Source: a virus
Taxonomy: Duplodnaviria > Caudoviricetes
Virus record (IMG/VR): IMGVR_UViG_3300032332_001787
Span: 128,001 to 192,000 of that record
Reading direction: 5' to 3' (one strand)
Length of the DNA stretch: 64,000 bases
Positions within the stretch are counted from its first letter, which is position 1. Each line of letters opens with the position of its first letter. The translations under genes were made by a program, and so were the position numbers. This document shows, one piece after another, positions 4,098 to 64,000 of this stretch. A model generated the notes under the pieces. It saw only the letters and a list, made by a program, of their open reading frames with translations. It was not told where the DNA came from and made no database searches.

Positions 4098-4139
4098 GAT
4101 GGTATCAACTACTATCTAAAAAATATAAGGGCAGCAAAT

Positions 4140-5111: not shown

Positions 5112-5130
5112 TTAGAACGGAATCGAGATA

Positions 5131-18998: not shown

Positions 18999-18999
18999 A

Positions 19000-19203: not shown

Positions 19204-19205
19204 TA

Positions 19206-19892: not shown

Positions 19893-19899
19893 AGATAAA

Positions 19900-30934: not shown

Positions 30935-31420
30935 TCAGTTATTTATTGGTCCCCACTTATTAGCTGGGCAACTTTGATCTTTATGAGCTAACTTATTCTG
31001 ATGATTAGCTTCGCGAATAACAGTACATCCACAAAGTAAACAAGAATTATTTTGGAAATATTCACAAGTATTACAAATACCTAGCCTGTGTTCTATCTCT
31101 TCTTTAGAGCATAGATTATTTTCATTATTGTGATTAACTTCTCTAGCTACTTGGTCTTTTGTGTCTTGTTGTAACTGATCTAATAATGCCTCAGATATTG
31201 CTTGTTTAGAAGATCCTGCGTGAATCGGGGGAGCAACAGAGTCTCCCGTGTGCGCTTGGTGAATCTTGGAGGATAGATCTTCCATTTTTTTAAAACATAA
31301 TATCTTAGTATCCGGTGACTCTAATCCAACGGTCAAACCACAGTATTTACATTGAAAAAGTGGTTTATTATTGTAAAAAGTATTTAATGGTTGTAAATCA
31401 CAATAAGTAGAATTAATCAT
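30935..31420 (-). CDS. Small Cys-rich protein
   Basis: CKYCG and RLGICNTC..CLLCGC..CPANKW. The ATG at 31420 overlaps the upstream stop and is preferred to 31510. Confidence 0.65.
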   Translation of the reverse strand: MINSTYCDLQPLNTFYNNKPLFQCKYCGLTVGLESPDTKILCFKKMEDLSSKIHQAHTGDSVAPPIHAGSSKQAISEALLDQLQQDTKDQVAREVNHNNENNLCSKEEIEHRLGICNTCEYFQNNSCLLCGCTVIREANHQNKLAHKDQSCPANKWGPINN

Positions 31421-44692: not shown

Positions 44693-44710
44693 AATTATTA
44701 GTCCTAAATA

Positions 44711-46330: not shown

Positions 46331-46366
46331 ATTTTTAATCCTAAATATTGTCTTAAATAAGATAAT

Positions 46367-49300
46367 TTATCTTGATCCAGTTAAAAGACCGGCCGGATGA
46401 TTTAATTGATTAATTTGAACAGTAGCTGACCATAATGCTGTTGTATTTGAAACTCCTGAAGCAACTATACTAAGTCTAGGAACTGATCCATTGGTCGAAG
46501 TATCAAGATCCAATCTAGTACCAATGCCCATGCCAATTGGTAGTCCTGGAAGTCCAGCAGCAACACCGCTTTGGTATACTTTGGTAGTTTCATCTCCTAA
46601 TTTTGTAAAAATATTCCCATCAGTTGATCTAAAAATAGCTCCTTCAATAGTCATCGCAGCGGCAAAATTTCTAGAACTATCAGAATTATTATTATCATGC
46701 CATAATACAGAAGCTATTATTTTATAATTCCAAACATTATCATATAAAAGACCATTAGTATTTTTCAAAGTAACTGTATTATTTTGAGATTCTTGTCTTG
46801 GGTTATCTTTAGTAAAGTCTGTGGTTAAAGGCACAGCATTAGCTCCAAAAGAAGGGGTTCGACATCTTAGATAATATTGAACATATTGACTTGAACCAGT
46901 ATATTTTTCAGTTTCGGTTCCACTATCAAGAAACGAACCCCCAGCAAAAGCATGGGTATGATATGTATCATTTATTTTTGGACGATATCCAAATTCTATT
47001 CCTGGCATTGTTTTTAAATTTTGGCTGGTAGTAAGAGGGTCTAGTTGTGGAATTTTTAATCCATATGATAAATCCCAACTACTTCCATTAAATATCAAAA
47101 ATCGACCATTTCCATTTACTGTCAGAGATTCTCCGCTTTTATTTGTTTTTGATAGTCCAAATTCTACTTTAAATGCATTGTCTAAACCGAGCGATTTAGC
47201 TTCTGCATATAATGGATACATTCCAGTAAATTGTGTTTTTAAATCTAAAGTACTAAATCTAATATTTCCACTAATATCAGTTCGTAGATATAGTCCTTCT
47301 GTAGTTCCTTGTCCAATTCTTAAACTATCTGTGGAAATTTTACCATTTACAAATAATGCACTATCATTGGTCTTAGAATCATCTTTTACATAATTAACTA
47401 TAACATTTCCAGTTGGACCTATATGAAAACCTCTCCTATTATTTAACTGACCAGATTCAATAACTGAAAAAGTATTAGATAAACCAAGATTATTAAAAAC
47501 AGTATCAATATTATTGTTAGAACTGAGTAATATATTATACTTTGTATTGGGTATATTAAGATCTAAAATATCATTACTTACTACTCCTGTTGATCCTAAT
47601 ACTAGTGTTGACTGATTATCTATCCATCTGAAAGATGTATTTCCAGTAGCCCACGATTTGTCATTTGAAAATAGAATACTATATGGTCTTAAAACAGCAT
47701 TTGATAGTTTGCCGCTGCCATCTACATACAAAAATGTTCCGGTCAAATTTCTAGGAGCAGTAATATTATCATATACAACTAAATTGTTTAGTATGCCAGA
47801 GTTACCACTAGTATTAAAGAAATCTATTCTGTGCTGACTAAAATTAGTATTAAGCAAAACTTTAGCAAAATCTGATCCACCACTGCCTCTAATTTTTAAT
47901 CCATAGGTTAAGCCCTCATCATTAACCAACAGGCCAGATGATGTGATATATAAACCATTGTCTCCGCCTAAATTAAAATTAAGAGATTTACTAGATGGAT
48001 CATAGTTAATTTCTGATATACCACTAGCAACTTTATCATTAACCCTATAAAGTAATGAGCCATTATTTCCAGAAGTTCTGAATGGCAATTGCCATGTTCC
48101 TACTCCATTAATATTAGATGTTAATACATATTGATCTGGTGATGAAAATGCTATTCTGATGCCACTAGTATGAGTAATTCCGCTAACAGACAAATCAGAA
48201 GTTGGATTATTGGTATTAATACCTAGATAATTATTGTTTAAATTAATATTCAATATGGATGAGCTGTCTGTGCTAGACTTAACAATAATGTTATCCTGCA
48301 CTGCTCCAGAGTTAAATACTATTTTATCATTGTCTAATATTATTTTATTTCTATTATTTGTGCCAATATATAGAGTATTATTGGCTACTCCACTCATGCC
48401 AAATCCTACCACAACATTTCTCACGCCAGAAACATTATTATTATATCCAACAATAATACCACTACTAAACATATATCTATTATTAGAGCCAACAATTATA
48501 TTATCTGATCCATATACTGGATTAGTTTCTGGCCCACCTAATCCGTTACCTTGTTGATATGGCATTACTAATCCACTAATATTAGTATTTGGTTGATTGT
48601 TATCATCAAAACTATTATTAATAGAATAATATCCATTATTAGCATTAATAGCTATGGCGTTAGTAAAAGTTAATGTTGTAGTATTATCTATAGAATTTTC
48701 TACGATATCAGAAATTTCTCTTATGAAAGTATTAGCCACAGAAGGAGGATTTTGCAGACAAAGGAGGGCGCTGTCTCCTATAGTATATTTATTAGCTACA
48801 TTCAATGATGGAATAGTAATAGTATACGTTGTTAAAGTATCTGTAACAAATTGATGTCTGATAAGACCAAGCGTATTATTTCTTCCATAAATTAAATTAT
48901 TTATTCCATGAGATTGATTAGCTGTACCAATAACTATTCCACTAGACACTAATTGATTATATCCTATAACAATATTTCCGCTTCCAAAAACGTCCATTTT
49001 ACTATTGGCTGTATTAAATATCACAGACTCATGGCCTATAGCAGATATCTTGCTACCTACTGCTCCTAATTTATCTCCAACTAGGAAGTTAGAATTTCCC
49101 ATACTATATGTGTTGGAAGAGTTTTTAAGATTATTATATGACCCTATAACATTAATGCTGGATCCTGATGCAAAATTTTTATTTCCTAATAATACATTAG
49201 TATTACCATTTTGTATTACATTATTAATACCAGCTATAATAGAATTATTTATAGTTCCAGAAATACGTCTGGGTGTGCCGCTTATTGAACCAACAGAATC

Positions 49301-50722
49301 AATATAGACCCCTGTTTGATTATTCAATACTCCCATTACTAAACTATTATTGCTTGTTAGTGATACTGCATTGGTATTTCCTAATACTAAATTGTTTGTA
49401 ACAGTACCACTAAGATTATTGGAGTTGCCTAAAACTAATGAACCAGCAATATCTTTAGTAGTATTCGCTTGTCCTATCAAAAGCAAGCTGTTAGGATTTC
49501 CGCTAGATAGATTGTTATTAATGCCTAGTAAAATACTATCTTGTAAACCATTGTTTGTTTTATTGCCTAGTCCAATAACAATAGTCTTAGAAGAATCTTC
49601 AGATTTAATATTATTACCAACAAAAATACCACTAGTCATATTTAGAATTGACTGATCGGACCCTATGCAAACTAAACTATTGCCTATGGCGCTGGTTGAT
49701 CCTCCGTATATAACGCTGTTACTGCCGGTCAAGCCAACCATCGAACCAACCACGCTATTATTATTACCTGATAAATTATTAAAATTTCCAATGTAAATAT
49801 TGTTATTTCCAGTATTACTAACATATGATCCAAGAGCAATACCAGATACTCCAGAAATCATTGAGGACTGAACCAAACCAACAACATAGTCTCCATTTAG
49901 TTGATTTGAATTACCAACTAATACATTATATGATCCACTTAATGAATTATCATTTCCTATAAAAATATTATTTAAACCACTAATACTCACAGAATCACCA
50001 ACAGATATATTGCTAGATCCCTGTATACTAGAGTTATTTGTTAAAGCAAAAATTTTGGTACCACTAAAATAATTAATATTACCAACTGATACTCCACTGA
50101 TCGCTAGTCCACTATTATATGCTCCTAAAGTTGTGAAATTATTTCCAAGTATATTATTATTAGTTCCAATAACAGTATAAGAGTATCCGGATACTGTATT
50201 ACGACCACCCAATACTACATTTTGCAGATTAGCTGAAAATACTGGTTTATTGACTCCTCTCTCATCTACTGTAAAAATAATTTCTCCGCTAGTATATCCT
50301 GTGCTAGCATCAAGAATTTTGGACATAATTTGTCCATAGACGATTTCATTATAATTAGAGTCTCTACCGGCCAAATTAATTATGGCGGGGAAACTTCCGC
50401 TTACTGGGGTGATTTGTGGATTATGTACTAATAGCAAGGTAACGCCAGTGGGGCAGTTAGTGATGCTTTCAACTATTAGTCCGTCTTTGGCACAAGGGGC
50501 AACAACATGCAATACAGCATCTGGCAATCCTGTTCCAATTCCCAAACGACCAGCAGAAGCATCAAAATGAACTAAACTATTAATTCCAGTCCCTCTAATA
50601 CTAAAATCAATATTAGATTTATTATTATTGAAAATTGTATTAATGCCAGGAGTATCAGATAAAGTGATATCCGGGGTTAAACCAGATCCAATGTATAAGA
50701 TACCAGATATAGATTCGCTCAT
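46367..50722 (-). CDS. Tail fibre/adhesin-like protein with beta-roll repeats
   Basis: GIGTGLPDAVLHV and LGINTNNPTSDLSV fibre motifs, with long runs of N-x-x-(I/V)-G-x-x-N YadA-head-like repeats. Confidence 0.7.
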   Translation of the reverse strand: MSESISGILYIGSGLTPDITLSDTPGINTIFNNNKSNIDFSIRGTGINSLVHFDASAGRLGIGTGLPDAVLHVVAPCAKDGLIVESITNCPTGVTLLLVHNPQITPVSGSFPAIINLAGRDSNYNEIVYGQIMSKILDASTGYTSGEIIFTVDERGVNKPVFSANLQNVVLGGRNTVSGYSYTVIGTNNNILGNNFTTLGAYNSGLAISGVSVGNINYFSGTKIFALTNNSSIQGSSNISVGDSVSISGLNNIFIGNDNSLSGSYNVLVGNSNQLNGDYVVGLVQSSMISGVSGIALGSYVSNTGNNNIYIGNFNNLSGNNNSVVGSMVGLTGSNSVIYGGSTSAIGNSLVCIGSDQSILNMTSGIFVGNNIKSEDSSKTIVIGLGNKTNNGLQDSILLGINNNLSSGNPNSLLLIGQANTTKDIAGSLVLGNSNNLSGTVTNNLVLGNTNAVSLTSNNSLVMGVLNNQTGVYIDSVGSISGTPRRISGTINNSIIAGINNVIQNGNTNVLLGNKNFASGSSINVIGSYNNLKNSSNTYSMGNSNFLVGDKLGAVGSKISAIGHESVIFNTANSKMDVFGSGNIVIGYNQLVSSGIVIGTANQSHGINNLIYGRNNTLGLIRHQFVTDTLTTYTITIPSLNVANKYTIGDSALLCLQNPPSVANTFIREISDIVENSIDNTTTLTFTNAIAINANNGYYSINNSFDDNNQPNTNISGLVMPYQQGNGLGGPETNPVYGSDNIIVGSNNRYMFSSGIIVGYNNNVSGVRNVVVGFGMSGVANNTLYIGTNNRNKIILDNDKIVFNSGAVQDNIIVKSSTDSSSILNINLNNNYLGINTNNPTSDLSVSGITHTSGIRIAFSSPDQYVLTSNINGVGTWQLPFRTSGNNGSLLYRVNDKVASGISEINYDPSSKSLNFNLGGDNGLYITSSGLLVNDEGLTYGLKIRGSGGSDFAKVLLNTNFSQHRIDFFNTSGNSGILNNLVVYDNITAPRNLTGTFLYVDGSGKLSNAVLRPYSILFSNDKSWATGNTSFRWIDNQSTLVLGSTGVVSNDILDLNIPNTKYNILLSSNNNIDTVFNNLGLSNTFSVIESGQLNNRRGFHIGPTGNVIVNYVKDDSKTNDSALFVNGKISTDSLRIGQGTTEGLYLRTDISGNIRFSTLDLKTQFTGMYPLYAEAKSLGLDNAFKVEFGLSKTNKSGESLTVNGNGRFLIFNGSSWDLSYGLKIPQLDPLTTSQNLKTMPGIEFGYRPKINDTYHTHAFAGGSFLDSGTETEKYTGSSQYVQYYLRCRTPSFGANAVPLTTDFTKDNPRQESQNNTVTLKNTNGLLYDNVWNYKIIASVLWHDNNNSDSSRNFAAAMTIEGAIFRSTDGNIFTKLGDETTKVYQSGVAAGLPGLPIGMGIGTRLDLDTSTNGSVPRLSIVASGVSNTTALWSATVQINQLNHPAGLLTGSR

Positions 50723-50747: not shown

Positions 50748-53700
50748 TTATCTACGTTTACCAACAGCACCTTCTGTATCTCTATGCAGATCACCCATTG
50801 CTGCATTAACTTCCGATAGAACTATTTTTCTTATTGATTCATCCATTAATGCCAAATATTGTGCTCCATTAAAGTTAACATTAACATTATGTTCACCCTT
50901 CAAATTAATAACAGGATTGATATTTTTTAATTGGTCAATAAAGCTCTGGAATGTTGCGGTAAACTGGCTTAATCCATCAGTATTTGGAGAAGCTGATCCA
51001 CCACCAGTAGATACACCACCGCCACCACCAGTTTCATCTGTTGGTTGACCTCCACGGTAGAGATAATTAACTTTACCGACCTGACCACCATTAGCATATC
51101 GATTATTATTAATAGCTTGTAATAATGGTAGATTTCTTTGTGTAGAAGTTCTATTGACTACAAATTCGCCGGGAGTTAACATGGCGGGAACTGTATCTGT
51201 TCCTCTGGAAATTGGTGTGAAGGGGAGTATATTTCCTCCAGCAGCAGCATATACCATGCCTCCATATCTTTTGTTTACCGGCTCTTTCTCTGGTGGCTTA
51301 TCAGCTCCTTTCTCAGGAGTAGGTGGTGTTCCAGCTACCGCACCAGTACCAGCAGCTTGTGTACCTCCTTGTCCTATATCTGCACGGAATTCTGGATATT
51401 TCTGAGCTAGACTCACCCAGGCTTCATGTATTGCTTTAGCTTCGGACATAGCAGCTTCTTGTCCTTTTAATAATTGCAATATATTAATATCACCAATTTT
51501 TGTATTTACAGCTAGCTGATTACCTTTTAGTGTTGCATATGCTGAAGAGGCATTACTATATACTCCTGTTAAATAATCTACTCGTTTTTTGTCTTGTGTA
51601 AATTGTGTTTTTGCTGCATTATAACGAGCATCAGCATCTAATTTACTCCATACATCATTATATTTCTTTTCTAGGTCACCAGAACTGATGTTTGAGAAAG
51701 CTGAAGAATCCAAAGCCTCAAATAATGTTTTGTTTGATTCTGCTTGTTGTTTAATAGTTAATATTAATTGACCAGCTGGACTTTGAGATAATGCTTTATC
51801 TCTTTGAGCAGTTTCTCCGCCAGCTGCAAGATAGACTACTCCGCCTTTACTATATGCTTTGGTTTGTCCATTATTAATAGCTTTTAATAAAGGAAGATTA
51901 GCTTGAGTAGCTGATCTATTAACAACAAACTCTCCCGGTGTCAACATTGCTGGAACAGTATCTGTACCTTTTGGTTCATAAGGAATTAACATGCCATTAC
52001 TAGCATATACAATTCCTCCGGTAGACATTTGTTTTGGCTTAAGTGATAATGGGCCTTCTACTTTTTCAGTATTACCAATAACAAAATATCTATAATCATC
52101 AGGCAATATACCATCCACACCACTATCATTTTTTTGCTTAATCTCTTTAGCTTTGACCTCTGTATAATAAAGACGACGACCATTAGGAGTATTTATATTT
52201 TCTGCTGATATTGATTTTATATTAACACTATCTCCACCCATGCCTTTGATGATACTATGTGAACTAATGATATTTTTAATATCTTTAACAAAAGTTTCTA
52301 TGTCTCCTATTGGTTCTACATCTTTACCTTTAATAAAATCCCATTCTGCTTTGGCCATAGTATTTGTTTCAAACAATTCACTTAATGAAATACCTAATTT
52401 TTGAGCTTCATTTTTAACTTTCTCTTCAATTTGAGCTATAAATTCTGTCTTCATTATTCTCAATTTTTCTCTGATATTATCAGCTAATTCAATAGCTTGC
52501 TCTTGCCTGGGCTTATTTTGAATAATTTCGTTTAGATAAGTTTGTCTTTGTTTATCAAATTTTTCATATTCTTCTATTTTTTGTTTATTAGCAGTATCTC
52601 TAGCTTCTTTTTCTTTTTTAATTTTTTCATCTGTTTTTACTTCTTCTCCTACGGTTTCATATTTACCAGTTTCTTTATTTTTTATTGTTTTTTCTACTCT
52701 CCTAACTCCTTTAGATTCTCTATCTTTTATATTTTGTTTTATTTTATCAGCATAGGCTGGATTATATTGCGCTCCCACAATATCACTCAAATCTATTTGT
52801 ATTTGTGACAAAACATTATCAAAAGCACGACCACCCTCTGCTAAATATACAACTCCTCCAGTTGCATACTGTTTGGTCCCACCGCTATTGATAGACTTTA
52901 ATAAAGATAGATTAGCTTTAGTTGCTTTAGCATTAACAACAAATTCACCAGGAGTAAGCATTGCGGGAATTGTGTCTGTTCCTCGTGGTTGGAAATTAAC
53001 TAAAGTACCCTCTGAAGCATATACTATGCCTCCGGTATACATTCTACGAGGAGAGTTTTGTCCTTTATAGCTTACAGAGCTTGTTGTTTTTTGACCCTTT
53101 GCATACTTATCTCCTTTACCTATATTTTGATGATAGTTATATTCTCCTAAAATTCTACGATAGTACTTATATGAATTCTGGTACTGAGTTTCTATTCCAC
53201 TCATACCTCTAACTTTTTGGTCAGAATCCATTCTTGCTTCTCTAACTTGTTTGCCGCTATATCCCCCTTCTGGTGGAGAAACTTCTTTTCCTTCAGCATT
53301 TGTTCTAATGAAAGGTTTGTCAAACTGATCAAGAATAGAATCATTTATCTTAGTAAGAGGCTCTCCTTTTGCCAAAACTTCACTATAGTAGTTAGTCTTT
53401 AAGGTTTGTAATTTACCTACCATATCATCTATATTAACAAGAATATCTTGTTTTTCTCCTATCATTATAGATCTATTACCGGTTTTAGATAGATTGATTA
53501 ATTTGCTTAATTCAGTCAAACTAGTAATAGCTGCTCCATAACTGGTCTGCATAATTCCTAAAGTTTTTTTGCTGGTTTGTTGAGTAGCCTCATCTGGACT
53601 TTCAATTAATTTTAGTTGATTATAATCAGACAATTCTTTAAAAGCATTATTAGTTTCTCCATATATAGAACCAGCTAATCTAGTGATTTCTAATTGGTCA

Positions 53701-56700
53701 GATGCTCCCTCATTAATTTGTTTTTCGTCGCCCAATAAATTTTTTGGTCTTCTTGTGTCATAAGCTGTAACACGAATATTATTTCTAGAGTCTGTTTTAT
53801 CATTAGTATAGAATGCAGGAGTAATAAATTTATTCTTTATGGGTTGTTCCGGAGATTTACCCGATGAAATTAAAGATGCTAAATATTCTTTATATGTTAA
53901 TTCATCATAATAATCTAGTTTGCTATTATTTGCTGCTGGAATCATTATAGCAGAAAATGGCTCTTTACTTCCATCAGATCCTTCCTGAGCAGAAAATTCT
54001 GTAACAGGATTTTCGGACTTAGGCATTTGTGGCTTTGCTTGTTTCTCGTCCGGTCTTTGTAATGGTCGTGCTGCTGGTATACTTCTTTGACTTTGGCGTG
54101 CTGCTAATATATCTCTAACCACAAAAGCTGTTTGAGTTAAGCCATTGATACTAGCAAATCTACCTCTCTTGGGTTTTACAACAACATCGTCCAGTTGTTT
54201 CCTAATCTGTGCCAAGTCGTCTGGTTTTATACCATATTGATGAGCTACGTCATCTAATATTTGCTGTCTTTTTGCGGCTGCTGCTGGGTTGCTCGGTGTC
54301 GCATTAAGGATATCATATTCTTTATTGAAATAATCATCAAACATCTTGTTGGCATCTAGTTTGCTAAAATCACCACTAACATCTATTCCTAATCTAGCGA
54401 ATGTTTCTTTAGTCTGTGCTTGTGCGGCAATGTAAAGAGGTGAATTATCTGTGAGTTTTGTTAAGAGAGCTGGATCAATGTAGTCTGGACTAGATTTCAA
54501 TAAATCATCAAAATGAAATTGAGCTGCTTTAGATCGTACGTCTCCTAATGTCTGTAGAGCAGAAGCAACATCACCAACAGCTAATGAATCATATTTTCTT
54601 TTTATTGCAATATTATACGCGTCACCAATATTACTATTGAATTTACTTTGAATTTCTGCTAATCTTTCTAATGCAGCCGGAGCGACAGATCTTGCTGTTC
54701 GTCTACGGTTATAATCTTCAACAGCATCTCCAATTTTTTGTCTTATAGAACGCCTACCACCAACTACTTTTCTAGAATTTGAACCAGCTTGACTTCCTAA
54801 ATCATCTGCGAATTTAGCAACAGCATTTTCTGGAGGTATAACATCTGATCCAACAGCCATCAATCTAGTTAAGCTTGAATCGCCAGATTTTATAGCTTCT
54901 GCTACTACTTGTTTCGATAATTTTTTAGTTGTTATAGTCGCTACTGCTTTACTGATAGCATTATCAGCAACTGAACCACCAGCAATTTCTGCAGCAAATC
55001 CTGTCCATTGTCCAGCCGCATATGCTTCTGGATTTTTCTTAATTTTTTCTTCTATATCTGTTTTCATAGAAGATGGAAGCATTTTATAAATTTCTTGATT
55101 TAGGTATTGCCCCAATTGATCACCAGCTAATCCACCGGCTACTGCTCCACCAACGCCGACAACAGGACCTGCTATATTACCTGCAATAAATCCTAGACCA
55201 CCCAAACCTAAGCTTAGAAGACCTGGGATTGCTTTGCTTGCTATACCATAACCAAAAGCTTTCCAATCCCAATTCATAGGCTTAAAGCCTAGTGTTTGCT
55301 TTTGTATAAGAGCTTCTCTATCTATAGTACCTTGAGTAAATGGATAATTAGGATCTCCACTATAAAATTGTTCTTCTAGTGTATTACGAGATATTTTTCT
55401 ATCACCGTATTTGATCTTATTAGCTGCTTCATAAGTTTGTATAAACTCTAGACTACTAGTTCCTAGTTTCTGTTTTTGAGGATCAAGCTTAGCATATTTA
55501 GTCTTAGCCGCAGCAGATAAATATTCTTGTATATGATGATCGTATGCAGCATTATAACTATCTAATTCTTGAACACTGATTTTACCATCTTTATTTCCTC
55601 TAAAATCAAGATAGTCAAATATTGTTCCTTTTGCTGTATATTCTTTATCGTCTAAAACACCATCTTTATTAGTATCATATCCATTAAAATATTTTGCTCT
55701 ATCCATTGGCATAAAGTCTTTTTTAACAGTTAAACCGCCTCTAGCTAAATAATTAACAATTCCCCCAGTAGAATAATGATTTCCGTTATTAATAGCTTTG
55801 AGCAGTGGTAAGTTTTTCTGTGTTGCTTCTCTGTTGATTACAAACTCTCCGGGAGTTAGCATAGCCGGAACAGTATCTGTACCTCGTGGTTGAAAATTAA
55901 CCATTTGTCCGTTCGCTGCATATATCATGCCACCATTTGCTCTCATTTGTGGCTCAGCCATTTGTCGTGCCTCAAACCATTCGGCCGATGGTAGCTGTCC
56001 GTATTTTGCAGAAACGCCTAGTTGTGAGTTAGCAAGATTAGCATTGTCTCTGACTTGATCAGCACGGCCACTCTTTATGGCTTGAATTACAGCATCAGTT
56101 CTGTCTTTTTCTGGTAGATTCTTATCATAAAAATAATCTTGTCCTGGCCAGCCAACTATTCCACCAGAATACCATGTTAGTAATGAACCTAGTGCATTAT
56201 CTATATATGATGCTGTTTGTGGATCATAAAATGGCATACCCAAAGAATCTTTACCTTGAGATATGTCTGTTCTAAGCTTACTAATAATATTTCTTCTAGT
56301 ATCAATATTTGTAAATTCGTTATATGGATTTAATCCAAGATCAACAAGTTCTGCATAAGTTTTTGGTACTTGATTTGTAAAGTCTTCATAGGTTAAAGAT
56401 CCATCAGCTCCAATAGTTCTAATTTTTGATCCTTTAAGAGATTGTCCTAAAGTTGCTTTAAAATCTGATGATAGTTCTCTACTTGCTGCTTTTTGGAAAT
56501 TTGCTGAGGCCCCTAACGATCTGAATAATGATTCCATATCGCCATTATCAAGCAAAGTTTTAATAAATCTAGTATTACCACCAGCAATACCACCAAAAGC
56601 ACTAGTGGCTCCTGCTAGAAGACCATACGCCTCTTTAATAGAATTATACTGCTGCGGACTACGAGCCATATAAAACAAGCGACTAGCATATGCTCCAGCC

Positions 56701-59700
56701 TCATTAAATACATTACTAGCATATGCTGCTGCCTGCTTGCCCATATCATCGTCTTTTAAAGGACGAGCACCAAATCCGGGAACTCCTCTTAAATATCTAA
56801 AGGCCCAGCCGCTACCAAAACCTGGAATTTTTCTACGACCAAAAACCCCCAAAGCTCCTTTTGCTAGTTTTTGAACAGTGTCTTTAATCTCTCCTGGATT
56901 ACCACCAATAATATCTGCTAGCTGATTAGGATTATCTATGCTTTTAGCTGCCCTAGTAGCAGTATTTTTAGTAGCAGAACTAAGATCTTTAATTGCATTA
57001 ATTAACCAATCTCCTACTTCTAGATTGGCTCCTCTGGGTATAACGTCATTAAAAATAAGACTATTCATTGCGTCCGGAGCATTTGAAGCCAAGCCTAAAG
57101 CATTAGAAAATGATATAATATCATTGGCTTTGATTTGTTTAGATAAATTATCTTGTTTAGTTTGGTCATTATTAATTAAAGCATTATAATACTGATCTAA
57201 TAAAGGAATAGCTTGAACTTTATTTAATAGATCCCCTGGAGTAAATTCTGAGCTATTATAAATTCTCTTCTTGTCAATTTCTAGTTGTTGAAAAATGTCC
57301 AGGGGACTCTTATTTGGTTCTGGAATAAAAATATCTTTTAACTGTCTTGCTGGGTCTTTAGAGAAACTTCTTGTCTTTTCATCCCATAATGGAGCACTAT
57401 ACTTCGTATACTCAACTCCATAGTTTAAGTCTAAATTCTTGCCACCAACAGGAATGGATAGTTTGTCCATTTTGAAACCAAGAGATTGCTTCTTGATCGG
57501 CCCATTTTTCATTTTATTAACAACATCTTCTTTAGCTTTTTCTTCAAAATTCTTTCCTAAAGAATCTAAGTCAATATTCATCATCCATGGAAAATGCTTG
57601 GGTGCTCCACCAGCTACTGTTGATGTTACATCAAAGAGATTATACAATTGCGTCAACTCTTTATTTTTTAATCCTGGATCTTTCTTATCAATAGCAAATT
57701 GTACTCCATTAGCCTTAGCTTGATCCAAATTTAAACTTTCAACAGTGTCTTGTAGTGTTGAGTTTATGTATGGAGTATTTGGAAAGACAAATAATGTGCG
57801 AGGTTTACCTAATGGAGCAAAAGTTTTTAATAGATCAACTTCTCCCGTTAGGTCTTCGTGACTAGATGTTCCATTATATAAGGCTGAAAATGATTGCATC
57901 AATTTATCATAACTGCCATTTACAGACTGATCAAACTTTACTCTAGTATCATCAAAATCGAGAGCTTGTGCAATAATATTTTTATTTTCATTGTGTTTCT
58001 CAATTAAAGAGTCAATTTGACTTCTGTTTTTAAGATATTTAGAATCAGGACTATTACTAGAAATACCGGGATAATACAATATATTATATTTAATGGCTGA
58101 AGATGGACCAAATTTTTTCCCAGCATAATCACCGATATCATAAGATGGTTCACTAGCAGATACAGCATCAACATGCCCCATACCAAAATATGTTGATGAT
58201 TGCCAAATTTTATTCATTGGGGCGTTATTAAAATCAACAGATGGTACTGGTGGTGGACTACCAAAATACAAACCAGCCCTATGTCTTATCTTTCCATTAG
58301 GATTATACTCAGAATGAGTAAGTGTAGATGGCTCAACAGATGATGGAAAATCTCCTATGCTATCTAGTTCATTTCCTAAATTAAGTTTATCCAAAGATAA
58401 TGTTGGATATTTTGCTCTTAGCTTAGTACTATAATTAGCTGCTTCAATTTTAGAAACTTTAGAAACCTCCAAATTTTCTCGACCAACTAATAATTTATCT
58501 GTTAATATGGGTTTAAATTCAGCTAAGTCTTTTGATGATTTATCTAAGGCAGTATATTTTGCTGTGGTACCACCATCAAATCTATCAGTAACTCTTATTG
58601 GAGCTGTAACTCCAGCAACAATCTCTCCACTATTGTCCCATATATTATCGGTTTTGAAATCTATAAAACCAAAAGTATTTTTAGGAGTTTTATTTAAACC
58701 ATTTCTTTGTAGTCTAGTAAATATCTGAGGGCCAGCAAGTGCTTTTTCAGAAGCATTGTCTATTAGTTTATTATTTTTGTTTAAGTCTAGATAAGAATCT
58801 TGTGTTAAGTTAAAATTATCAGAATCTCTAGACGTGGTTTTCATAAAATCACTAACATATCCACCATCAGCATAATAACTAACCTTGCCACCACTACTAA
58901 ATTTATTACTATTGATACTTTGCAATAAAGGAAGATTAGCCTGAGTAGCTGCTCTATTAACCACAAATTCTCCAGGTGTTAACATGGCTGGTACTGTGTC
59001 TGTTCCTTTAGGAGCAAAGTCAACATTCATACCAGCAGCAGCATATATAATTCCTCCTGAAGCTTTTCCAGCAGCCGGAACTGGCTTATCACCCAATTTA
59101 TTTTCGATAGCTTTAACATTTGCAGCAATATCCGATAGTTCTTTGTTTTCAAAAGTGACTTTAGACTTTGTTAAAGCTTCTGCAAGAGCTTCTGCTGATT
59201 TATTCGCAATTTGTGAAGCTAAATTATTATTAAGCATAGCTAGTTGTTTATTAGCATCTGACTGTGTATTAATAGCCTGTTGATATTGCTGCATTGCAGC
59301 TTGTGTTTCTGGATCAGCTTGTGGATTTCTCAGAGTATTTAAAATCTGTTGAAAAACTGGAGATACTCCCTGGCCAGATTCTTGTAACATGCTTTCTAAA
59401 ACATTTGCTTTAATATTATTTGCTTGTTTATTATCTCCTAAAAATGGCATAACATCTTTCAGAGCACTTAAAGTTTCTTTTCTATCATTAGCAAAAGCAA
59501 CTTGAGCAGCTTTCATAGCTTCAAATCCTGAAGCCCCATTATTTAATGCTTCAGCATATGCTTTTTGAGCACTTTGAGAATTTTGTATAGTATTAACTTG
59601 ACCCCTAATATTATTTTGTAGTCTACCAAAAGCAGCATTGAGAGAATTAAATTCTTCTGGGGTGCTAGTTACTAGTTTTTCTATAAAACCAACTTTGCCC

Positions 59701-62700
59701 TCATTCTTTTGCTGAGCTTCTTGAATTTTATTCAGAGCCGTCGAAGCAATGTCGGTATTCTCTGCTAAATTTTTTAAAGCATCATAATTTTCTCTTAATG
59801 CAACATTAGTATTTCTTAAATTATTTTGCATACGAACAAAATCATCAGCTCCTTGTGGACCTCTTTGACGAGCTATGTCTGATGATCCCTCTTGAGCTTT
59901 TCTAGTATTATCTAAACCTAAGATTTGATTAGCTATATCTTGTGGTCTTGTTGGGCCGCCTGTTTGTTGAGCAGTTGTGGCTTCTACATTTCTTCTAACA
60001 TCCGATACATCTATAGTTTTGCCTAAAGTTTTTGCTAATTCTAGCTGTCCATCTGTTAGGATTTGAGTTGACTTTCTCAATTTTTCGTTGGTGTCTATTT
60101 GAAGATCAGCTAATTCATTCATTCTAGTAGAATAATTATTTAAAGCATTCTGCCAATTTTCCAAAGCTTTGAGAGCGACTTCTTGCGCTCTCTTACTGCT
60201 TTCTATAACTTTAGATAATTGAGGTATTTTTTCCACTAATTGAGTAAAATCGACTTTATCATCTCCACTCTTTCTCATATCTTCTAGAGCTTTAGATACT
60301 TCTCCTGATAATTTGCTACTTATATCTGGTGGAAGCTGTAATGAATCTAATTGTTCTTGAACAGCTTTTTGTATAGCAAATCCCATTTTCTCATTATTCG
60401 ATTCTGGATTTTTTCTAATAGTATTATTAATAGTTGATAGTATACTACTCTCTAAATTGCTTCCTATGCTTAATAATCCTTTCATAACATTAGTACTACC
60501 ACTAAACATGCTAGCAGCTTGAGATCTAGCAGAGTTATTTTCTGCTCCAGAATAAGCATTAGGGTTTTGTAGCACATTCATGCTATTTAATGAACCTGAA
60601 CCAATTTTAGCTTCACCCTTTAGTGAAGATGAGGCTAAGTCTAGATCTCTAGACATCTGTTCTAGTCCAAAATTAGTTTTATTAATAGACTGTTCCATAT
60701 TCTGAAACATTCTTTCCAAACTACGAGCAAAATTACTAGTTGAATTTTCTAATGATTTCATAGCAGCTTCTCTTTCCGCTATAGCTGCCTGTTTGCGAAT
60801 AGCTGCTTCTGCATGCATACCAATAACTAAATCTTGTCTTGCTTTTTTCTCATCTGCTGTTAAATCTATATTATTATTAATAGATTGAATTTGTGCATTA
60901 ACTGACTTATCCGCCATAGCCAAAGAAACAGCAAATTGATTAACATCAGTACCAGCTCCTTTAAATTCTGTAATCAAATCACTAATATTAGCTCCGCCCT
61001 TCGCTTTATTTGTAATTAATTTATTAATATTTTCTGCTACTGGAGTAAATTGTTTCGCAGACTCTTCGGCTCTTCCTGGTATTAAATCTTGCACATAGCT
61101 TGATCTTGTTTGTTCAGCTTGGATATTACCAGTCATTTCACTAGCTTTTTTACCTGCTATCAAATCCTGGATACCTTGAAGTAATCCGCCCTGATTGCCC
61201 ATAACCTGACCAAAACCAGTAGATGCAAAATAGGCCCCTATTCCTTTTTTATCCAGAATATCTGCTCTATCGGCAGCAGCAGACTGACTACTAATCCCTT
61301 CTTTTTCATTACTTCCAAAAGAATCTAACATATTCACCCAAAATGTCTTGGCCATTTTACTATTAATATCCATACTAGCTTTAGCCATGTTGGCAGCTTC
61401 AGCAAGTTTAGATGTTATAGTTCTTTGAATATTAATATCTTTTATATCTTTTTCTAATTTGACAAACTCTAAAGCTGTTTCTTCTAAAGCACTATTTAAT
61501 TTATTTTGTATCATCTTTTTCTCAAAAGCCAATGCTGCATTTTTGGCATCAATAAAAGCCTGACCGACAGCAGCAGCAGCAACAGCGGCGACTCCAAGAG
61601 ATCCGGCCAATTTACCCAATCCTGGAAGCATATCCTTTACACCTCCTCCAATCATAGCCCCAGTAGCTAGCATATTAGTGCCACCTTGCAATCCAGCTGA
61701 TAACTGAGCATTGCTGGAACTACTTTCAGCATTAATATTTTGAGCTATTAAACTGCCTATCATCTGAACACCAAAAGCAGCACCCATCATGCCTTGTCCA
61801 CTCATTCTACCACCGGATCCTGGACCACCAGAACCCCTAGTTTCATTTAGTGTTGCTCTTCTAGTATCAGCTTCTTGTTTAGCTAATCTACGAGCTTCTT
61901 GTAAAATTCTATTTCTGTCTCCACCAAAACGTCCCTCTGCTGTGAGTTGTGTTCTTAATTCGCCTCTTCTTCTAGCTTCAAAGGCTCGGTTCATTTGCTC
62001 AAATGTTCTTGGATCTCCCATAGCAGTATTAATATATTGTCTAAGGTCATTACCGCTTAGCCCTGCTGTCTGTGTTGGTGATAATCCTGCTGTTCGAGCT
62101 GCTCTTCCATATGAAACGCTTTCTGCTCGTCTCATAAAATTTTCATCAACTTCACCTCCCCTTGCTTGACGTCTTTGAACCATAGCTTGTAAATTTTGCT
62201 GTGCGTTATGATCTATTGTTTCTAATTGACGGCCACTAACTCCGGATAATTGTCTTTGAGCCCTGACTTGAGTTGCTGCTTGCTGTCTCATATTAGCAAG
62301 TCTTGTTTCAGCTTCTATAACAGTTTGCATCGGAGCACCAGAAACTCTTAATCTTAAAATATCAGCTTCATATGCATTGATAGCTGCTCTAGAACTAATT
62401 TGTCCACCTTTGCGAATAATTTCAGCAGATGATGATGATGTTACTCCTAATTGAGTTAATGCTTCTGTTATTTCATTTAATTGAGTAACCACACCATCTG
62501 TAATGCGAACATTCTCTAAAGAAGCTTGTGCTCCTGGTCTAGCTGGCACTCTTGGACCACCACCTAAGAAAAATCTTTGAACAGCTCCACCAGATGAGAA
62601 TTGTTGAACACCAATAGCACCGCCATCACTAAGTCCTAAAGCTTTTGTTGCAGCTGCGCGAATTATGAAGCTACCTACTGGTAAACCTATTGGCCCAATA

Positions 62701-64000
62701 CTATCGCTAGTTCCTGTTCCCGGACCTTTAAAAACACTAATGCCTCCACCAGCAAATGATCTCATGCCATTACGATCTGCCCGATTCATTTGTCTTAATT
62801 TAGAATATCCTATATTTTTTGCTAACTCTGGAGGAACATAAGCTTCTCCAGAGCTAACTAGTGCTGGAACAGTATCAGTTGCGTCTCCTCCAGTTGAATA
62901 TCCCTTAACATTTTTAAGATAAGTAACAATGTTGTCTTTTATGGTTGATGGACCAGCTAGTGTTCTTTTAACATCAGTTGGTATATTAGGAGGTAGTTTT
63001 GGTTCAAATTTTTGTGAGACTCTACCAAGCCCAGTCATAAAATCAAATCCATTACCCTTTGGTGATCCTACTGCTCCTAGTCTTCTTATAAATGCTTCTA
63101 ATAAATTGCCTTTAAGTGATTCTATATTTTCTAATGATTGTGTGTTTTCTTTTAATTTTTTAACTCCTCTATATCTATAAACATCAATTCCTTCATCGGC
63201 TCTTTGTTTAGCAGCGTTTATGTTTCTTTTGTCGTCGTCAACAAAAATAGATCCTGGAGTTAGTTCTGCCGCTTTTAGCTTGGCAATATCTGATCCCGAA
63301 ACGGTGGGACCGCCCAACCCTTTAAATTGACTATCTGTTATTGGTAAGCCTTTACTGCTTAACCATGTTTGAATTAAGGGGAGCGTTGCTTTTGGTCTAG
63401 CTGTTATTACTCGTATATTTTTTAATAGCTCTGGTTTTTTACCTACTAAAGAAACTAATTGACGACCTAGTACGCTTAATTTGGCTTTACCCAGAGCCTC
63501 AGTTACTTTGGGAATATCAGAGAATTCACTAAATCTTGGTTTTTTGGGATCTGCTAAAATTTTATCAGCACCAAAAGCTAATGTTCTATCGAAATCCAGA
63601 GCTAATTCTCTACCAGACTCAAATCCACTTAATACTGATCTGACCTTTTTCTTTTGATAAATTATTTCTGCTCTTTTTTCTTTTTTAGCCTGTGCCATTG
63701 GTATAGTATCAACAGCCTTATCAAAACTAGAATCTATACTACTAGCTCTTTTTTGATTTTTATATACTCCACTATAAATGCTAACAGTATGTTGTTTATT
63801 TGGATCTTTTAATTTGCTGTCTTGTATAGTTTGAATTACTGGCTGGGCTGCAAATGCACTGCCAAATAGTCCAGCAGCACCAAATACTAATCCTTTAGCT
63901 GTTGCTTTATTTTGTTTTCTTGTTTGACTAGCTTCTTTTTTGCTTGCTAATGCAGCTTTTTGTTTAGTAAATTCTGCTATAATAGCAGCTTTGCTTGCTG
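50748..64000 (-). CDS. Giant tape-measure-like protein (>4,400 aa, 5' end outside window) with repeated gpH-C-like modules and HAD and EF-hand inserts
   Basis: I checked 63699-64000 codon by codon and found no in-frame stop, so the track's ATG at 63698 is internal. It has long Ala/Gln-rich helical stretches, Gly/Ala hydrophobic segments and repeated [FY]xxGG/GEFVV modules, and lies upstream of the tail-type genes. Confidence 0.8.
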   Translation of the reverse strand, partial: ASKAAIIAEFTKQKAALASKKEASQTRKQNKATAKGLVFGAAGLFGSAFAAQPVIQTIQDSKLKDPNKQHTVSIYSGVYKNQKRASSIDSSFDKAVDTIPMAQAKKEKRAEIIYQKKKVRSVLSGFESGRELALDFDRTLAFGADKILADPKKPRFSEFSDIPKVTEALGKAKLSVLGRQLVSLVGKKPELLKNIRVITARPKATLPLIQTWLSSKGLPITDSQFKGLGGPTVSGSDIAKLKAAELTPGSIFVDDDKRNINAAKQRADEGIDVYRYRGVKKLKENTQSLENIESLKGNLLEAFIRRLGAVGSPKGNGFDFMTGLGRVSQKFEPKLPPNIPTDVKRTLAGPSTIKDNIVTYLKNVKGYSTGGDATDTVPALVSSGEAYVPPELAKNIGYSKLRQMNRADRNGMRSFAGGGISVFKGPGTGTSDSIGPIGLPVGSFIIRAAATKALGLSDGGAIGVQQFSSGGAVQRFFLGGGPRVPARPGAQASLENVRITDGVVTQLNEITEALTQLGVTSSSSAEIIRKGGQISSRAAINAYEADILRLRVSGAPMQTVIEAETRLANMRQQAATQVRAQRQLSGVSGRQLETIDHNAQQNLQAMVQRRQARGGEVDENFMRRAESVSYGRAARTAGLSPTQTAGLSGNDLRQYINTAMGDPRTFEQMNRAFEARRRGELRTQLTAEGRFGGDRNRILQEARRLAKQEADTRRATLNETRGSGGPGSGGRMSGQGMMGAAFGVQMIGSLIAQNINAESSSSNAQLSAGLQGGTNMLATGAMIGGGVKDMLPGLGKLAGSLGVAAVAAAAVGQAFIDAKNAALAFEKKMIQNKLNSALEETALEFVKLEKDIKDINIQRTITSKLAEAANMAKASMDINSKMAKTFWVNMLDSFGSNEKEGISSQSAAADRADILDKKGIGAYFASTGFGQVMGNQGGLLQGIQDLIAGKKASEMTGNIQAEQTRSSYVQDLIPGRAEESAKQFTPVAENINKLITNKAKGGANISDLITEFKGAGTDVNQFAVSLAMADKSVNAQIQSINNNIDLTADEKKARQDLVIGMHAEAAIRKQAAIAEREAAMKSLENSTSNFARSLERMFQNMEQSINKTNFGLEQMSRDLDLASSSLKGEAKIGSGSLNSMNVLQNPNAYSGAENNSARSQAASMFSGSTNVMKGLLSIGSNLESSILSTINNTIRKNPESNNEKMGFAIQKAVQEQLDSLQLPPDISSKLSGEVSKALEDMRKSGDDKVDFTQLVEKIPQLSKVIESSKRAQEVALKALENWQNALNNYSTRMNELADLQIDTNEKLRKSTQILTDGQLELAKTLGKTIDVSDVRRNVEATTAQQTGGPTRPQDIANQILGLDNTRKAQEGSSDIARQRGPQGADDFVRMQNNLRNTNVALRENYDALKNLAENTDIASTALNKIQEAQQKNEGKVGFIEKLVTSTPEEFNSLNAAFGRLQNNIRGQVNTIQNSQSAQKAYAEALNNGASGFEAMKAAQVAFANDRKETLSALKDVMPFLGDNKQANNIKANVLESMLQESGQGVSPVFQQILNTLRNPQADPETQAAMQQYQQAINTQSDANKQLAMLNNNLASQIANKSAEALAEALTKSKVTFENKELSDIAANVKAIENKLGDKPVPAAGKASGGIIYAAAGMNVDFAPKGTDTVPAMLTPGEFVVNRAATQANLPLLQSINSNKFSSGGKVSYYADGGYVSDFMKTTSRDSDNFNLTQDSYLDLNKNNKLIDNASEKALAGPQIFTRLQRNGLNKTPKNTFGFIDFKTDNIWDNSGEIVAGVTAPIRVTDRFDGGTTAKYTALDKSSKDLAEFKPILTDKLLVGRENLEVSKVSKIEAANYSTKLRAKYPTLSLDKLNLGNELDSIGDFPSSVEPSTLTHSEYNPNGKIRHRAGLYFGSPPPVPSVDFNNAPMNKIWQSSTYFGMGHVDAVSASEPSYDIGDYAGKKFGPSSAIKYNILYYPGISSNSPDSKYLKNRSQIDSLIEKHNENKNIIAQALDFDDTRVKFDQSVNGSYDKLMQSFSALYNGTSSHEDLTGEVDLLKTFAPLGKPRTLFVFPNTPYINSTLQDTVESLNLDQAKANGVQFAIDKKDPGLKNKELTQLYNLFDVTSTVAGGAPKHFPWMMNIDLDSLGKNFEEKAKEDVVNKMKNGPIKKQSLGFKMDKLSIPVGGKNLDLNYGVEYTKYSAPLWDEKTRSFSKDPARQLKDIFIPEPNKSPLDIFQQLEIDKKRIYNSSEFTPGDLLNKVQAIPLLDQYYNALINNDQTKQDNLSKQIKANDIISFSNALGLASNAPDAMNSLIFNDVIPRGANLEVGDWLINAIKDLSSATKNTATRAAKSIDNPNQLADIIGGNPGEIKDTVQKLAKGALGVFGRRKIPGFGSGWAFRYLRGVPGFGARPLKDDDMGKQAAAYASNVFNEAGAYASRLFYMARSPQQYNSIKEAYGLLAGATSAFGGIAGGNTRFIKTLLDNGDMESLFRSLGASANFQKAASRELSSDFKATLGQSLKGSKIRTIGADGSLTYEDFTNQVPKTYAELVDLGLNPYNEFTNIDTRRNIISKLRTDISQGKDSLGMPFYDPQTASYIDNALGSLLTWYSGGIVGWPGQDYFYDKNLPEKDRTDAVIQAIKSGRADQVRDNANLANSQLGVSAKYGQLPSAEWFEARQMAEPQMRANGGMIYAANGQMVNFQPRGTDTVPAMLTPGEFVINREATQKNLPLLKAINNGNHYSTGGIVNYLARGGLTVKKDFMPMDRAKYFNGYDTNKDGVLDDKEYTAKGTIFDYLDFRGNKDGKISVQELDSYNAAYDHHIQEYLSAAAKTKYAKLDPQKQKLGTSSLEFIQTYEAANKIKYGDRKISRNTLEEQFYSGDPNYPFTQGTIDREALIQKQTLGFKPMNWDWKAFGYGIASKAIPGLLSLGLGGLGFIAGNIAGPVVGVGGAVAGGLAGDQLGQYLNQEIYKMLPSSMKTDIEEKIKKNPEAYAAGQWTGFAAEIAGGSVADNAISKAVATITTKKLSKQVVAEAIKSGDSSLTRLMAVGSDVIPPENAVAKFADDLGSQAGSNSRKVVGGRRSIRQKIGDAVEDYNRRRTARSVAPAALERLAEIQSKFNSNIGDAYNIAIKRKYDSLAVGDVASALQTLGDVRSKAAQFHFDDLLKSSPDYIDPALLTKLTDNSPLYIAAQAQTKETFARLGIDVSGDFSKLDANKMFDDYFNKEYDILNATPSNPAAAAKRQQILDDVAHQYGIKPDDLAQIRKQLDDVVVKPKRGRFASINGLTQTAFVVRDILAARQSQRSIPAARPLQRPDEKQAKPQMPKSENPVTEFSAQEGSDGSKEPFSAIMIPAANNSKLDYYDELTYKEYLASLISSGKSPEQPIKNKFITPAFYTNDKTDSRNNIRVTAYDTRRPKNLLGDEKQINEGASDQLEITRLAGSIYGETNNAFKELSDYNQLKLIESPDEATQQTSKKTLGIMQTSYGAAITSLTELSKLINLSKTGNRSIMIGEKQDILVNIDDMVGKLQTLKTNYYSEVLAKGEPLTKINDSILDQFDKPFIRTNAEGKEVSPPEGGYSGKQVREARMDSDQKVRGMSGIETQYQNSYKYYRRILGEYNYHQNIGKGDKYAKGQKTTSSVSYKGQNSPRRMYTGGIVYASEGTLVNFQPRGTDTIPAMLTPGEFVVNAKATKANLSLLKSINSGGTKQYATGGVVYLAEGGRAFDNVLSQIQIDLSDIVGAQYNPAYADKIKQNIKDRESKGVRRVEKTIKNKETGKYETVGEEVKTDEKIKKEKEARDTANKQKIEEYEKFDKQRQTYLNEIIQNKPRQEQAIELADNIREKLRIMKTEFIAQIEEKVKNEAQKLGISLSELFETNTMAKAEWDFIKGKDVEPIGDIETFVKDIKNIISSHSIIKGMGGDSVNIKSISAENINTPNGRRLYYTEVKAKEIKQKNDSGVDGILPDDYRYFVIGNTEKVEGPLSLKPKQMSTGGIVYASNGMLIPYEPKGTDTVPAMLTPGEFVVNRSATQANLPLLKAINNGQTKAYSKGGVVYLAAGGETAQRDKALSQSPAGQLILTIKQQAESNKTLFEALDSSAFSNISSGDLEKKYNDVWSKLDADARYNAAKTQFTQDKKRVDYLTGVYSNASSAYATLKGNQLAVNTKIGDINILQLLKGQEAAMSEAKAIHEAWVSLAQKYPEFRADIGQGGTQAAGTGAVAGTPPTPEKGADKPPEKEPVNKRYGGMVYAAAGGNILPFTPISRGTDTVPAMLTPGEFVVNRTSTQRNLPLLQAINNNRYANGGQVGKVNYLYRGGQPTDETGGGGGVSTGGGSASPNTDGLSQFTATFQSFIDQLKNINPVINLKGEHNVNVNFNGAQYLALMDESIRKIVLSEVNAAMGDLHRDTEGAVGKRR
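51048..62900 (-). repeat. Dispersed ~70-aa intragenic repeat (core GTDT[VI]PAMLTPGEFV[VI]N)
   Basis: Cores at 51162-51203, 51927-51968, 52941-52982, 55842-55883 and 58965-59006. Degenerate copies at about 62667-62727 (GTGTSDSIGPIGLPVGSFII) and 62835-62900 (ATDTVPALVSSGEAYV). Confidence 0.95.

Follow-up and report, generated by a model that had tools for sequence, protein, structure and literature searches.

A repeated junction module separates swappable cassettes in a giant tape measure protein of an uncultured freshwater jumbo phage

Introduction

Tail tape measure proteins (TMPs) are rulers and channel formers of phage tails and sometimes carry one enzyme. The maturation of one of them, gpH of phage lambda, to gpH* and gpHC is reportedly the subject of a 1983 study by Tsui and Hendrix. 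In this processing gpHC is the fragment that is cut off (PMC12617516), and for pb2 of phage T5 the cut has been mapped after R1127 (Linares et al., 2023, PMC10038345); recent proposals hold that TMP cleavage is general. Here we describe a TMP gene at one end of a 64,000-nucleotide (nt) stretch of viral DNA (hereafter the window), which comprises bases 128001-192000 of the IMG/VR virus record IMGVR_UViG_3300032332_001787 (230,097 bp, complete according to CheckV, ~33% G+C). The product of this gene is divided by repeated copies of an element of ~80 amino acids (aa), termed the junction module or unit, and we consider it with high confidence to be a modular, cargo-carrying TMP.

How folded domains sit in the tail tube is a question that has also been raised for the giant TMP gp96 of the Thermus phages P23-45/P74-26 (bioRxiv 10.1101/2022.12.01.518664), and rapid domain shuffling as well as a proposed proteolytic release of domains have been described for the polyvalent proteins (PMC5512222). 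A literature search found no published description of TMPs with multiple units.

A giant tape measure protein with eight junction modules

The last 13.2 kb of the window consist of a single open reading frame (ORF) on the minus strand, which is open to the window edge (50748..63998) and ends with the stop codon at 50748-50750. In the full record its start is an ATG located 4,338 nt past the window end, at genome position 196336, and the complete protein, P0002, has 5,862 aa and a mass of 634 kDa. Judging by its sequence, the product is a tail tape measure protein with a TP901-type core at its N-terminus: PF10145 matches residues 293-486 with 87.5 bits (cut-off 33.2, E 1.5e-24), TIGR01760 matches residues 253-595 with 91.9 bits (cut-off 28.8, E 3.8e-26), the PHROG matches of the repeats are TMP families, and the database names of relatives go at most as far as 'TP901 family phage tail tape measure protein'. 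P0002 also possesses a long helical/hydrophobic segment and a conserved C-terminal tail that is always last, the pattern of which is similar to that of the lambda tail as judged by eye. Encoded upstream of the window are the TP901 core and unit 1, as well as a PD-(D/E)xK-like segment and a putative pair of kinase and nucleotidyltransferase. The source of the gene is a jumbo phage from freshwater that has not been cultured.

When the five near-identical units were turned into a profile, it recovered all seven gpH-like copies, five good and two degenerate, which the first-pass annotation of the window had reported for this TMP-like ORF. The good units lie at P0002 residues 3088-3175, 4128-4216, 5095-5182, 5433-5520 and 5685-5769 (E 1e-39 to 3e-49) and the tandem degenerate pair at 1807-1933, while an eighth copy is located outside the window at residues 623-698, immediately C-terminal of the TMP core; a profile search of the genome revealed no unit copies beyond the TMP ORF. 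On the core motifs, the spacings noted in that annotation (1041, 967, 338 and 255 aa, in addition to 1234 aa from the second degenerate copy) are matched exactly, and module spacing as a whole is very irregular, ranging from 170 to 1,230 aa. Two GG boxes enclose the rest of each module, which consists of a hairpin-like GTDTVPAMLTPGEFV segment followed by the amphipathic helix ATxxNLxLLxxIN. Motifs of the type [FYW]xxGG occur 22 times in P0002, as compared to 5.4 expected, and 18 of them are inside units.

The units are conserved in protein and synonymously diverged in DNA, as had been claimed at first reading. Over the 39-aa unit core, the five copies share 62-82% amino-acid identity and 62-77% nucleotide identity, the same codon is used for only 22-57% of the residues that are identical between copies, and the longest exact DNA match for any pair measures 8-18 nt. 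Because the synonymous sites are scrambled and the shared DNA words are this short, the units are old duplicates kept by selection at the peptide level, and not recent copies or products of gene conversion. Near-invariant residues are found across 376 module copies. In a tree of 44 units three types are distinguished, and copies from the same position in different genomes cluster together, for example those at the junction of the helical segment and cassette D, those after cassette D and those before the tail; thus, units have been inherited in place and not homogenized within a genome.

Occurrence of the module in other proteins and its predicted fold

The module has no Pfam family. When the unit profile (A1) was compared with all PDB sequences, it matched tape measures only, namely Douge gp16 (two copies, E = 4.5e-8), JBD30 gp46 (E = 0.048) and lambda gpH (residues 733-784, E = 0.088). 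Profile A2 against gpH alone gave 1.4e-6 over residues 753-787, in an alignment confined to the second half of the module, and in the lambda H sequence, which was fetched for this purpose, the element reads FHFATGG...GEFVFTKEATSRIGVGNLYRLMRGYATGG at ~731-787. The statement in the first-pass annotation that lambda gpH carries one such unit near its C-terminus, in the portion removed at maturation, was therefore correct, as the profile match at ~731-787 is inside gpHC (PMC12617516). Among 1.84 billion representative proteins, the profile found 28,719 with E <= 1e-3, of which 1,348 reach E <= 1e-30. The 150 best-scoring ones are all giant (1,360-7,872 aa, with 3-11 matched stretches each), and beyond this lineage the unit usually occurs once per protein and sometimes twice. 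By profile comparison, the module repeated here corresponds to an element that ordinary TMPs have once, just before the C-terminal tail.

In the structures of the Douge, JBD30 and lambda TMPs just the last 30-42 residues are resolved, and the module is never visible. An AlphaFold monomer prediction for one unit, based on a 74-sequence alignment, reached a predicted local distance difference test score (pLDDT) of 61, with one helix over ATxxNLxLLxxIN and the remainder as coil. As a predicted monomer, the module looks like no self-folding domain but like a linear or partner-dependent element. A reading of GTDT...GEFV as a catalytic Ser-Lys arrangement of the S24/S26 type was dropped, since no Lys or Ser is conserved across the copies.

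In an unrelated TMP of 747 aa (L048:8894-11134), a single module at residues 369-445 is directly followed by a SleB-type cell-wall hydrolase domain (PF07486) at 500-576. This arrangement shows another case of a module located between a putative ruler and putative cargo.

A fixed scaffold and the turnover of its cassettes

The N-terminal core has counterparts with 57-68% identity in dozens of IMG/VR contigs, and at least 506 clusters (3,245-7,872 aa) with the same core were found by a word-indexed search, one of them from a Sphingobacteriia metagenome-assembled genome; the lineage has no cultured close relative. Five complete genomes encode TMPs of 4,355, 5,679, 6,899, 7,733 and 7,794 aa, in which the unit profile has 5 to 11 matches, and six further complete TMP ORFs encode proteins of 2,435-3,702 aa with 2-5 units. 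For the lineage, TMPs range from 2,435 to 7,872 aa and from 2 to 11 modules, and among the 150 best database matches length correlates with the number of units (r = 0.70).

The members share one map, in which the core is followed by a unit, a variable cassette (214-2,113 aa), a second unit, the helical/hydrophobic segment (~1,000-1,350 aa), 0-8 repetitions of a unit and a cassette, and a tail of ~100 aa. Within the window, the features on the minus strand are as follows, where an arrow marks the putative cut discussed below.

50748..63998, minus strand: window part of the TMP ORF, residues 1447-5862 of 5862
63831..63890, minus strand: transmembrane-like hydrophobic stretch LVFGAAGLFGSAFAAQPVIQ (P0002 1483-1502), conserved in relatives
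62967..63659, minus strand: HAD-phosphatase-like putative cargo domain (P0002 ~1560-1790); DFDRT, ITARP, K and VDDD invariant in relatives
62532..62924, minus strand: junction module 2, a tandem degenerate pair (P0002 1805-1935)
59079..62531, minus strand: scaffold cassette (P0002 1936-3086), helical and poor in aromatics and proline, with a Gly/Ala hydrophobic stretch
58833..59078, minus strand: junction module 3 (P0002 3087-3168), N-box K↓ASGGIIYAAAG
55956..58832, minus strand: cassette D, 959 aa; 26-36% identity with long-TMP relatives
55707..55955, minus strand: junction module 4 (P0002 4128-4210), N-box R↓ANGGMIYAANG
53055..55706, minus strand: cassette E, 884 aa; EF-hand loops at 55551-55673, glycine-zipper hydrophobic stretch at 55137-55259
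52803..53054, minus strand: junction module 5 (P0002 5095-5178)
52041..52802, minus strand: highly charged cassette between modules 5 and 6, 254 aa, 37% K/R/D/E
51789..52040, minus strand: junction module 6 (P0002 5433-5516)
51285..51788, minus strand: small cassette G, 168 aa; common to three relatives and invariably next to last
51021..51284, minus strand: junction module 7, the last (P0002 5685-5772)
50751..51020, minus strand: C-terminal tail, 90 aa; last in every relative

The order of the scaffold is kept in the 12 complete TMPs compared (2,435-7,794 aa), while the inter-unit segments show gain, loss, duplication and replacement, so that some cassettes are unique, some common to subsets and some duplicated. 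The scaffold cassette is found in all relatives with 28-51% identity and is presumed to be the ruler and channel-forming part. In cassette D, the C-terminal ~320 aa are conserved and helical; cassette E is found in a subset of relatives only, and twice in one of them (G003); the highly charged cassette has no counterpart among the 11 complete relatives, and a related cassette is found in two of 150 database representatives. When 903 cassettes from 151 proteins were clustered, they fell into 317 families, 244 of which have a single member, and the core, helical and tail families hold fixed positions. The fixed scaffold, which comprises the TP901-type core, the helical/hydrophobic segment of ~1,150 aa and the tail of ~90 aa, is threaded with swappable cassettes.

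The units mark the boundaries of this turnover. When the end points of alignments between relatives (150 aa or more) are taken as breakpoints, 47% of them are inside a unit, as compared to 11% for random positions. Comparison of the segments confirmed that they are unrelated to each other, and the swapping of putative cargo between repeats, which the first-pass annotation had suggested together with a survey of copy number and inter-repeat domains, is borne out by the breakpoints and by the segment turnover in the 12 complete TMPs; the surveyed inter-repeat segments (2-11 modules per protein, 317 cassette families) are not invariant. Candidates for split TMP genes turned out to be fragments at contig ends, and all relatives keep one ORF.

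The last unit ends 90 aa before the stop in P0002 and at a median of 128 aa before it in 150 relatives. The C-terminal tail is the positional counterpart of the hub-bound C-terminal helix in lambda gpH, T5 pb2, JBD30 gp46 and Douge gp16. In two relatives it directly follows the helical segment, with no unit before it; the unit, for which a role as docking site had also been envisaged, is consequently not required for docking at the hub. The shortest relatives (L021, L022, L031 and L032, with TMP open frames of 2,650 and 2,438 aa) have two modules only and none before the tail, from which it follows that the last module is dispensable for tail building in this lineage.

Content of the cassettes

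Core and helical segments are ruler-like in composition (3.6-4.4% aromatics, 1.3-1.8% proline), whereas cassettes B, D and E are of a globular type (6-10% aromatics, 4-5% proline). The assignment of a HAD domain at first reading is supported: five relatives show no variation in the DxDxT, T/S, K and DD motifs, and the language-model neighbors of the domain, at 0.91, are phage HAD phosphatases; Pfam, PDB sequence and HAD-alignment profile searches gave no match for it. The region of the putative kinase and HIGH-type nucleotidyltransferase upstream of the window has language-model neighbors at 0.84-0.88, all of them phage proteins of the Zeta/AAA_33 plus cytidylyltransferase-like type, and PDB sequence and profile searches with this enzyme cassette returned nothing. 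In relatives, an ADP-ribosyltransferase (PF03496) is located inside the TMP, in the second cassette (57 bits in G003, L093:2430-5879; 27.7 bits in G002, L097; and others), and it is missing from the copy of this cassette in P0002. Bare GG boxes (SSGGYIRKF, KFAVGG), which are conserved in relatives, separate the enzyme-like sub-domains of the second cassette.

The label of a helical/transmembrane region agrees with the composition and the hydrophobic stretch of that segment. For the EF-hand label, two canonical loops are present and EF-hand matches recur in relatives, but the Pfam match (E = 1.2e-4) does not reach the curated cut-off. Apart from EF-hands, here and in some relatives, and one weak SseC-like match, the cassettes located C-terminal of the helical segment are nearly blank, and searches of all cassettes against Pfam, NCBIfam and PHROGs gave nearly no matches. 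The proposal that several separate effectors are carried is thus supported in part only: enzymes can be recognized in the cassette that joins the core to the helical segment, mostly upstream of the window, and hardly any domain in the C-terminal cassettes. The evidence for enzyme cargo, drawn from motifs and similarity searches, is real but thin.

A candidate cleavage site at the N-terminal edge of the module

In a suggestive parallel, both TMPs that are known to be cut appear to be cut at (T5) or beside (lambda) the N-terminal edge of a unit-like element. The gpH* protein of lambda (78-79 kDa) ends at ~710-730 and the module starts at ~731; given this mass, the lambda cut would fall just before the module, in a Gly-rich stretch, and the module would head gpHC. 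Around its cut (arrow), T5 pb2 reads ...NSFVPR↓AEGGMMYPGVSYQMGEHGTEVVTPM, and the residues that follow are AEGGMMYPG...HGTEVVTPM. In the 376 modules, K/R occupies position -3, counted from the first GG, in 48% (background 12.5%) and F/L in 31%, position -2 is A/S in 67%, and the invariant GG is followed by [VILM][IV]YA..G. This N-box consensus, [KR/F][AS]xGG[VILM][IV]Y, resembles R1127↓AEGGMMY of T5, and HGTEVVTPM parallels [KR]GTDTVPAM. On T5 pb2, a 15-column N-box matrix has its top score exactly at the cut (rank 1/1,205), a score that 29% of shuffled T5 sequences also reach. The first-pass annotation had placed the cut after [FY]xxGG; the analogy with T5 points instead to a site two residues before the N-terminal GG. 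Residues 1128-1152 of T5 pb2, which we take to be the stretch reportedly read as a zinc-peptidase signature (PGVSYQMGEHGTEVVT), align with the first half of the module, and the peptidase-like motif may be a variant of the junction module rather than a peptidase site.

Two genes located far from the TMP gene encode candidate processing proteases, one of them Trypsin_2-like (genome 100500-100940; 28.6 bits, just above the cut-off) and the other ClpP-like (genome 111443-111889; 57.7 bits). Of six related genomes, five contain the Trypsin_2-like gene, and the one in which it was not detected has the fewest modules. The genome encodes no S49 peptidase, and Pfam detects no anchor or peptidase of the MuF, ArdC-N or zincin type in P0002.

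Proposed mechanism and alternative explanations

The explanation that we put forward as a whole, a modular TMP with a train of cargo cut at the modules, has in our judgement an even chance of being right. The TMP would first act as a full-length thread around which the tube assembles, and cutting would come afterwards, at the N-terminal GG box of each module (about [KR/F]↓[AS]xGG). Separate proteins would thereby come to lie one behind the other in the tube, as a train that would be expelled ahead of the DNA, tail-tip first. Tail-proximal cassettes (EF-hand, glycine zipper, unknowns) would exit first, into the envelope, the helical/hydrophobic segment would be next and would form the channel, and the enzyme-bearing cassette beside the core (kinase, nucleotidyltransferase and HAD, with an ADP-ribosyltransferase in relatives) would exit last, towards the cytoplasm. 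Cutting at the modules, taken by itself, is argued from analogy and is a tentative proposal for which the balance tilts slightly to the negative. Rather doubtful is the generalization that the module might be a portable TMP maturation signal, with a cut at the N-terminal GG box following closure of the tube, that has been multiplied up to 11 times here, with the order of the cassettes setting the order and compartment of delivery.

Several observations weigh against the cutting and delivery of cassettes. The lambda cut is known to about ±15 residues only, the T5 match is short and its score common among shuffles, and neither the full module profile nor a 34-column matrix detected the site in T5. 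The mixture of residues at position -3 (K/R, F, L, M) misfits one simple protease specificity, and no gpK-type JAB or NlpC/P60 peptidase is encoded in the genome. Most cassettes are without a recognizable domain, and 'effector' is an assumption for most of them; cassette D, labeled a large globular region at first reading, was predicted by AlphaFold with a mean pLDDT of 45 and no usable fold, and a protein-atlas search with it was blank. Furthermore, folded pieces of 25-130 kDa in three or six copies are hard to fit into a tube lumen of ~4 nm.

As the main alternative, the chain may never be cut, and the modules could be assembly nodes (inter-chain structure, or binding of the tube wall or of the tail chaperone) that hold three or six TMP chains in register, with non-helical inserts tolerated among the ruler segments and the cargo tethered as one envelope-spanning thread. 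The predicted failure of the module to fold alone fits such a partner-dependent element, which is moreover located where the six-fold TMP becomes three-fold in lambda and phiTE-type tails, and an intact chain agrees with the single ORF in all relatives, the absence of split genes among them and the mixed residues at the putative P1 position. We nevertheless regard uncut nodes as unlikely, given that the modules are spaced so irregularly, that bare GG boxes also part enzyme domains, that the boundary is the cut site in both experimentally studied phages and that two relatives have no module before the tail.

An improbable explanation is that the whole protein is a ruler for a tail of ~0.9 µm, the cassettes serving to fill length and the modules being remnants of a serially duplicated C-terminal end of the TMP. 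At 0.15 nm per residue, 5,862 aa correspond to 879 nm, within the size range reported for P74-26 and P23-45, and TMP length varies more than three-fold within the lineage; yet strong purifying selection on the modules, with residues near-invariant in 376 copies, argues that they are not relics, and neither the globular-type composition of cassettes B, D and E nor the conserved HAD catalytic motifs and the over-threshold ADP-ribosyltransferase are in keeping with filler. That the repeats act mainly as DNA-level sites of homologous recombination for cargo swapping, as the first-pass annotation had also considered, is very improbable in spite of the clustering of breakpoints in modules, because copies with 62-77% nucleotide identity that share at most 18 identical bases are a poor substrate, same-position copies of different genomes cluster in the tree, and breakpoints would cluster in the same way if selection spared only those junctions that are in frame and lie at flexible Gly-rich linkers.

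The lineage, in which 500 or more members carry 2-11 repeats, always at cassette boundaries, amounts to a natural experiment on a conserved C-terminal element of TMPs, and the predicted cut motif is concrete enough to be tested in lambda, in T5 or in two-module mycobacteriophages. If the module were a portable signal, the cuts in lambda and T5 would be explained, and the ruler would become a programmable train whose member proteins are released separately. Should the cassettes prove to be released cargo, phages would have in the tail lumen a second, ordered route of protein delivery besides the head, with a payload that is very large and almost wholly uncharacterized, as the single-member cassette families (244/317) illustrate.

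Genomic neighborhood

Directly downstream of the TMP gene (window 31413-50722, minus strand), four very large ORFs encode proteins of 1,451, 539, 1,796 and 2,631 aa. Searches against Pfam, PHROG and PDB gave no match to them, apart from a weak match of the first to an ice-binding-like beta-solenoid, and they are presumably distal tail, hub or fiber proteins of an undescribed kind. A PDB search with an upstream ORF of 342 aa returned nothing useful, and no tail sheath family was found in the genome. In one contig (L008:426-1633, minus strand), two abutting ORFs of 101 and 299 aa without family match are located just before the TMP gene, which is the usual site of tail assembly chaperone pairs.

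The window also contains a DNA polymerase that is split into two genes on the plus strand (17124-21528). The first, at 17124-18998, corresponds to positions 42-615 of phrog_405 and the second, at 19900-21528, to positions 612-1071, and a 228-aa ORF (19206-19892) is located between the two halves.

Comparison with known systems

The polyvalent proteins are giant virion-associated chains that combine numerous unrelated conflict domains, ADP-ribosyltransferases among them (Iyer et al., 2017, PMC5512222), a build that P0002 may share in part. They are packaged in the head or transferred by conjugation and often contain MuF or zincin domains, whereas here the carrier is a TMP and the separators are a TMP-specific module; tape measures have no occurrence in the paper on polyvalent proteins (PMC5512222). 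The gp96 protein of P23-45/P74-26 is likewise a giant TMP (5,002 aa), with a fused virion RNA polymerase that is to act in the host (bioRxiv 10.1101/2022.12.01.518664). It differs from P0002 in its single, N-terminal enzyme, and the paper describes no repeated junction module or cassette turnover. Together with the recent proposals of general TMP cleavage, gp96 is the nearest precedent found in the literature.

The closest cultured match of the N-terminal core, at 24% identity, is YomI of the Bacillus phage SPbeta, a TMP annotated with a lytic transglycosylase, which is distant and has no sign of a multi-module build. Some mycobacteriophage TMPs have two modules each, at residues 963-1038 and 1412-1463 of Douge gp16 (PDB 8ZDO) and at 956-1017 and 1615-1675 of Etaye gp28, and embedded enzyme motifs are known among these proteins, for example the peptidoglycan-hydrolase motif of TM4. 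In contrast to P0002, at most two copies were seen in these TMPs of 1,700-2,000 aa, and the structural paper on Douge, in which the last 42 residues are resolved, is silent on modules.

T5 pb2, which matures to pb2* and pb2C, is the sole TMP with a mapped cut, and its sequence R↓AEGGMMYPG...HGTEVVTPM fits the N-terminal box and the start of the core of the module; the C-terminal piece separated by the cut stays in the tail. It has one such site and HGTE in place of the [KR]GTD found here, and the full module profile misses it because the GEFV-helix half is missing. Lambda gpH has one copy of the module as opposed to eight, a length of 853 as opposed to 5,862 aa, no cargo cassettes, and GGKYEPAGIVHR in the first half of the module where P0002 has GTDTVPAMLTP. 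As in P0002, its module (~731-787) is followed by a short tail, in lambda of ~65 aa, the residues 818-849 of which bind the tip protein gpI.

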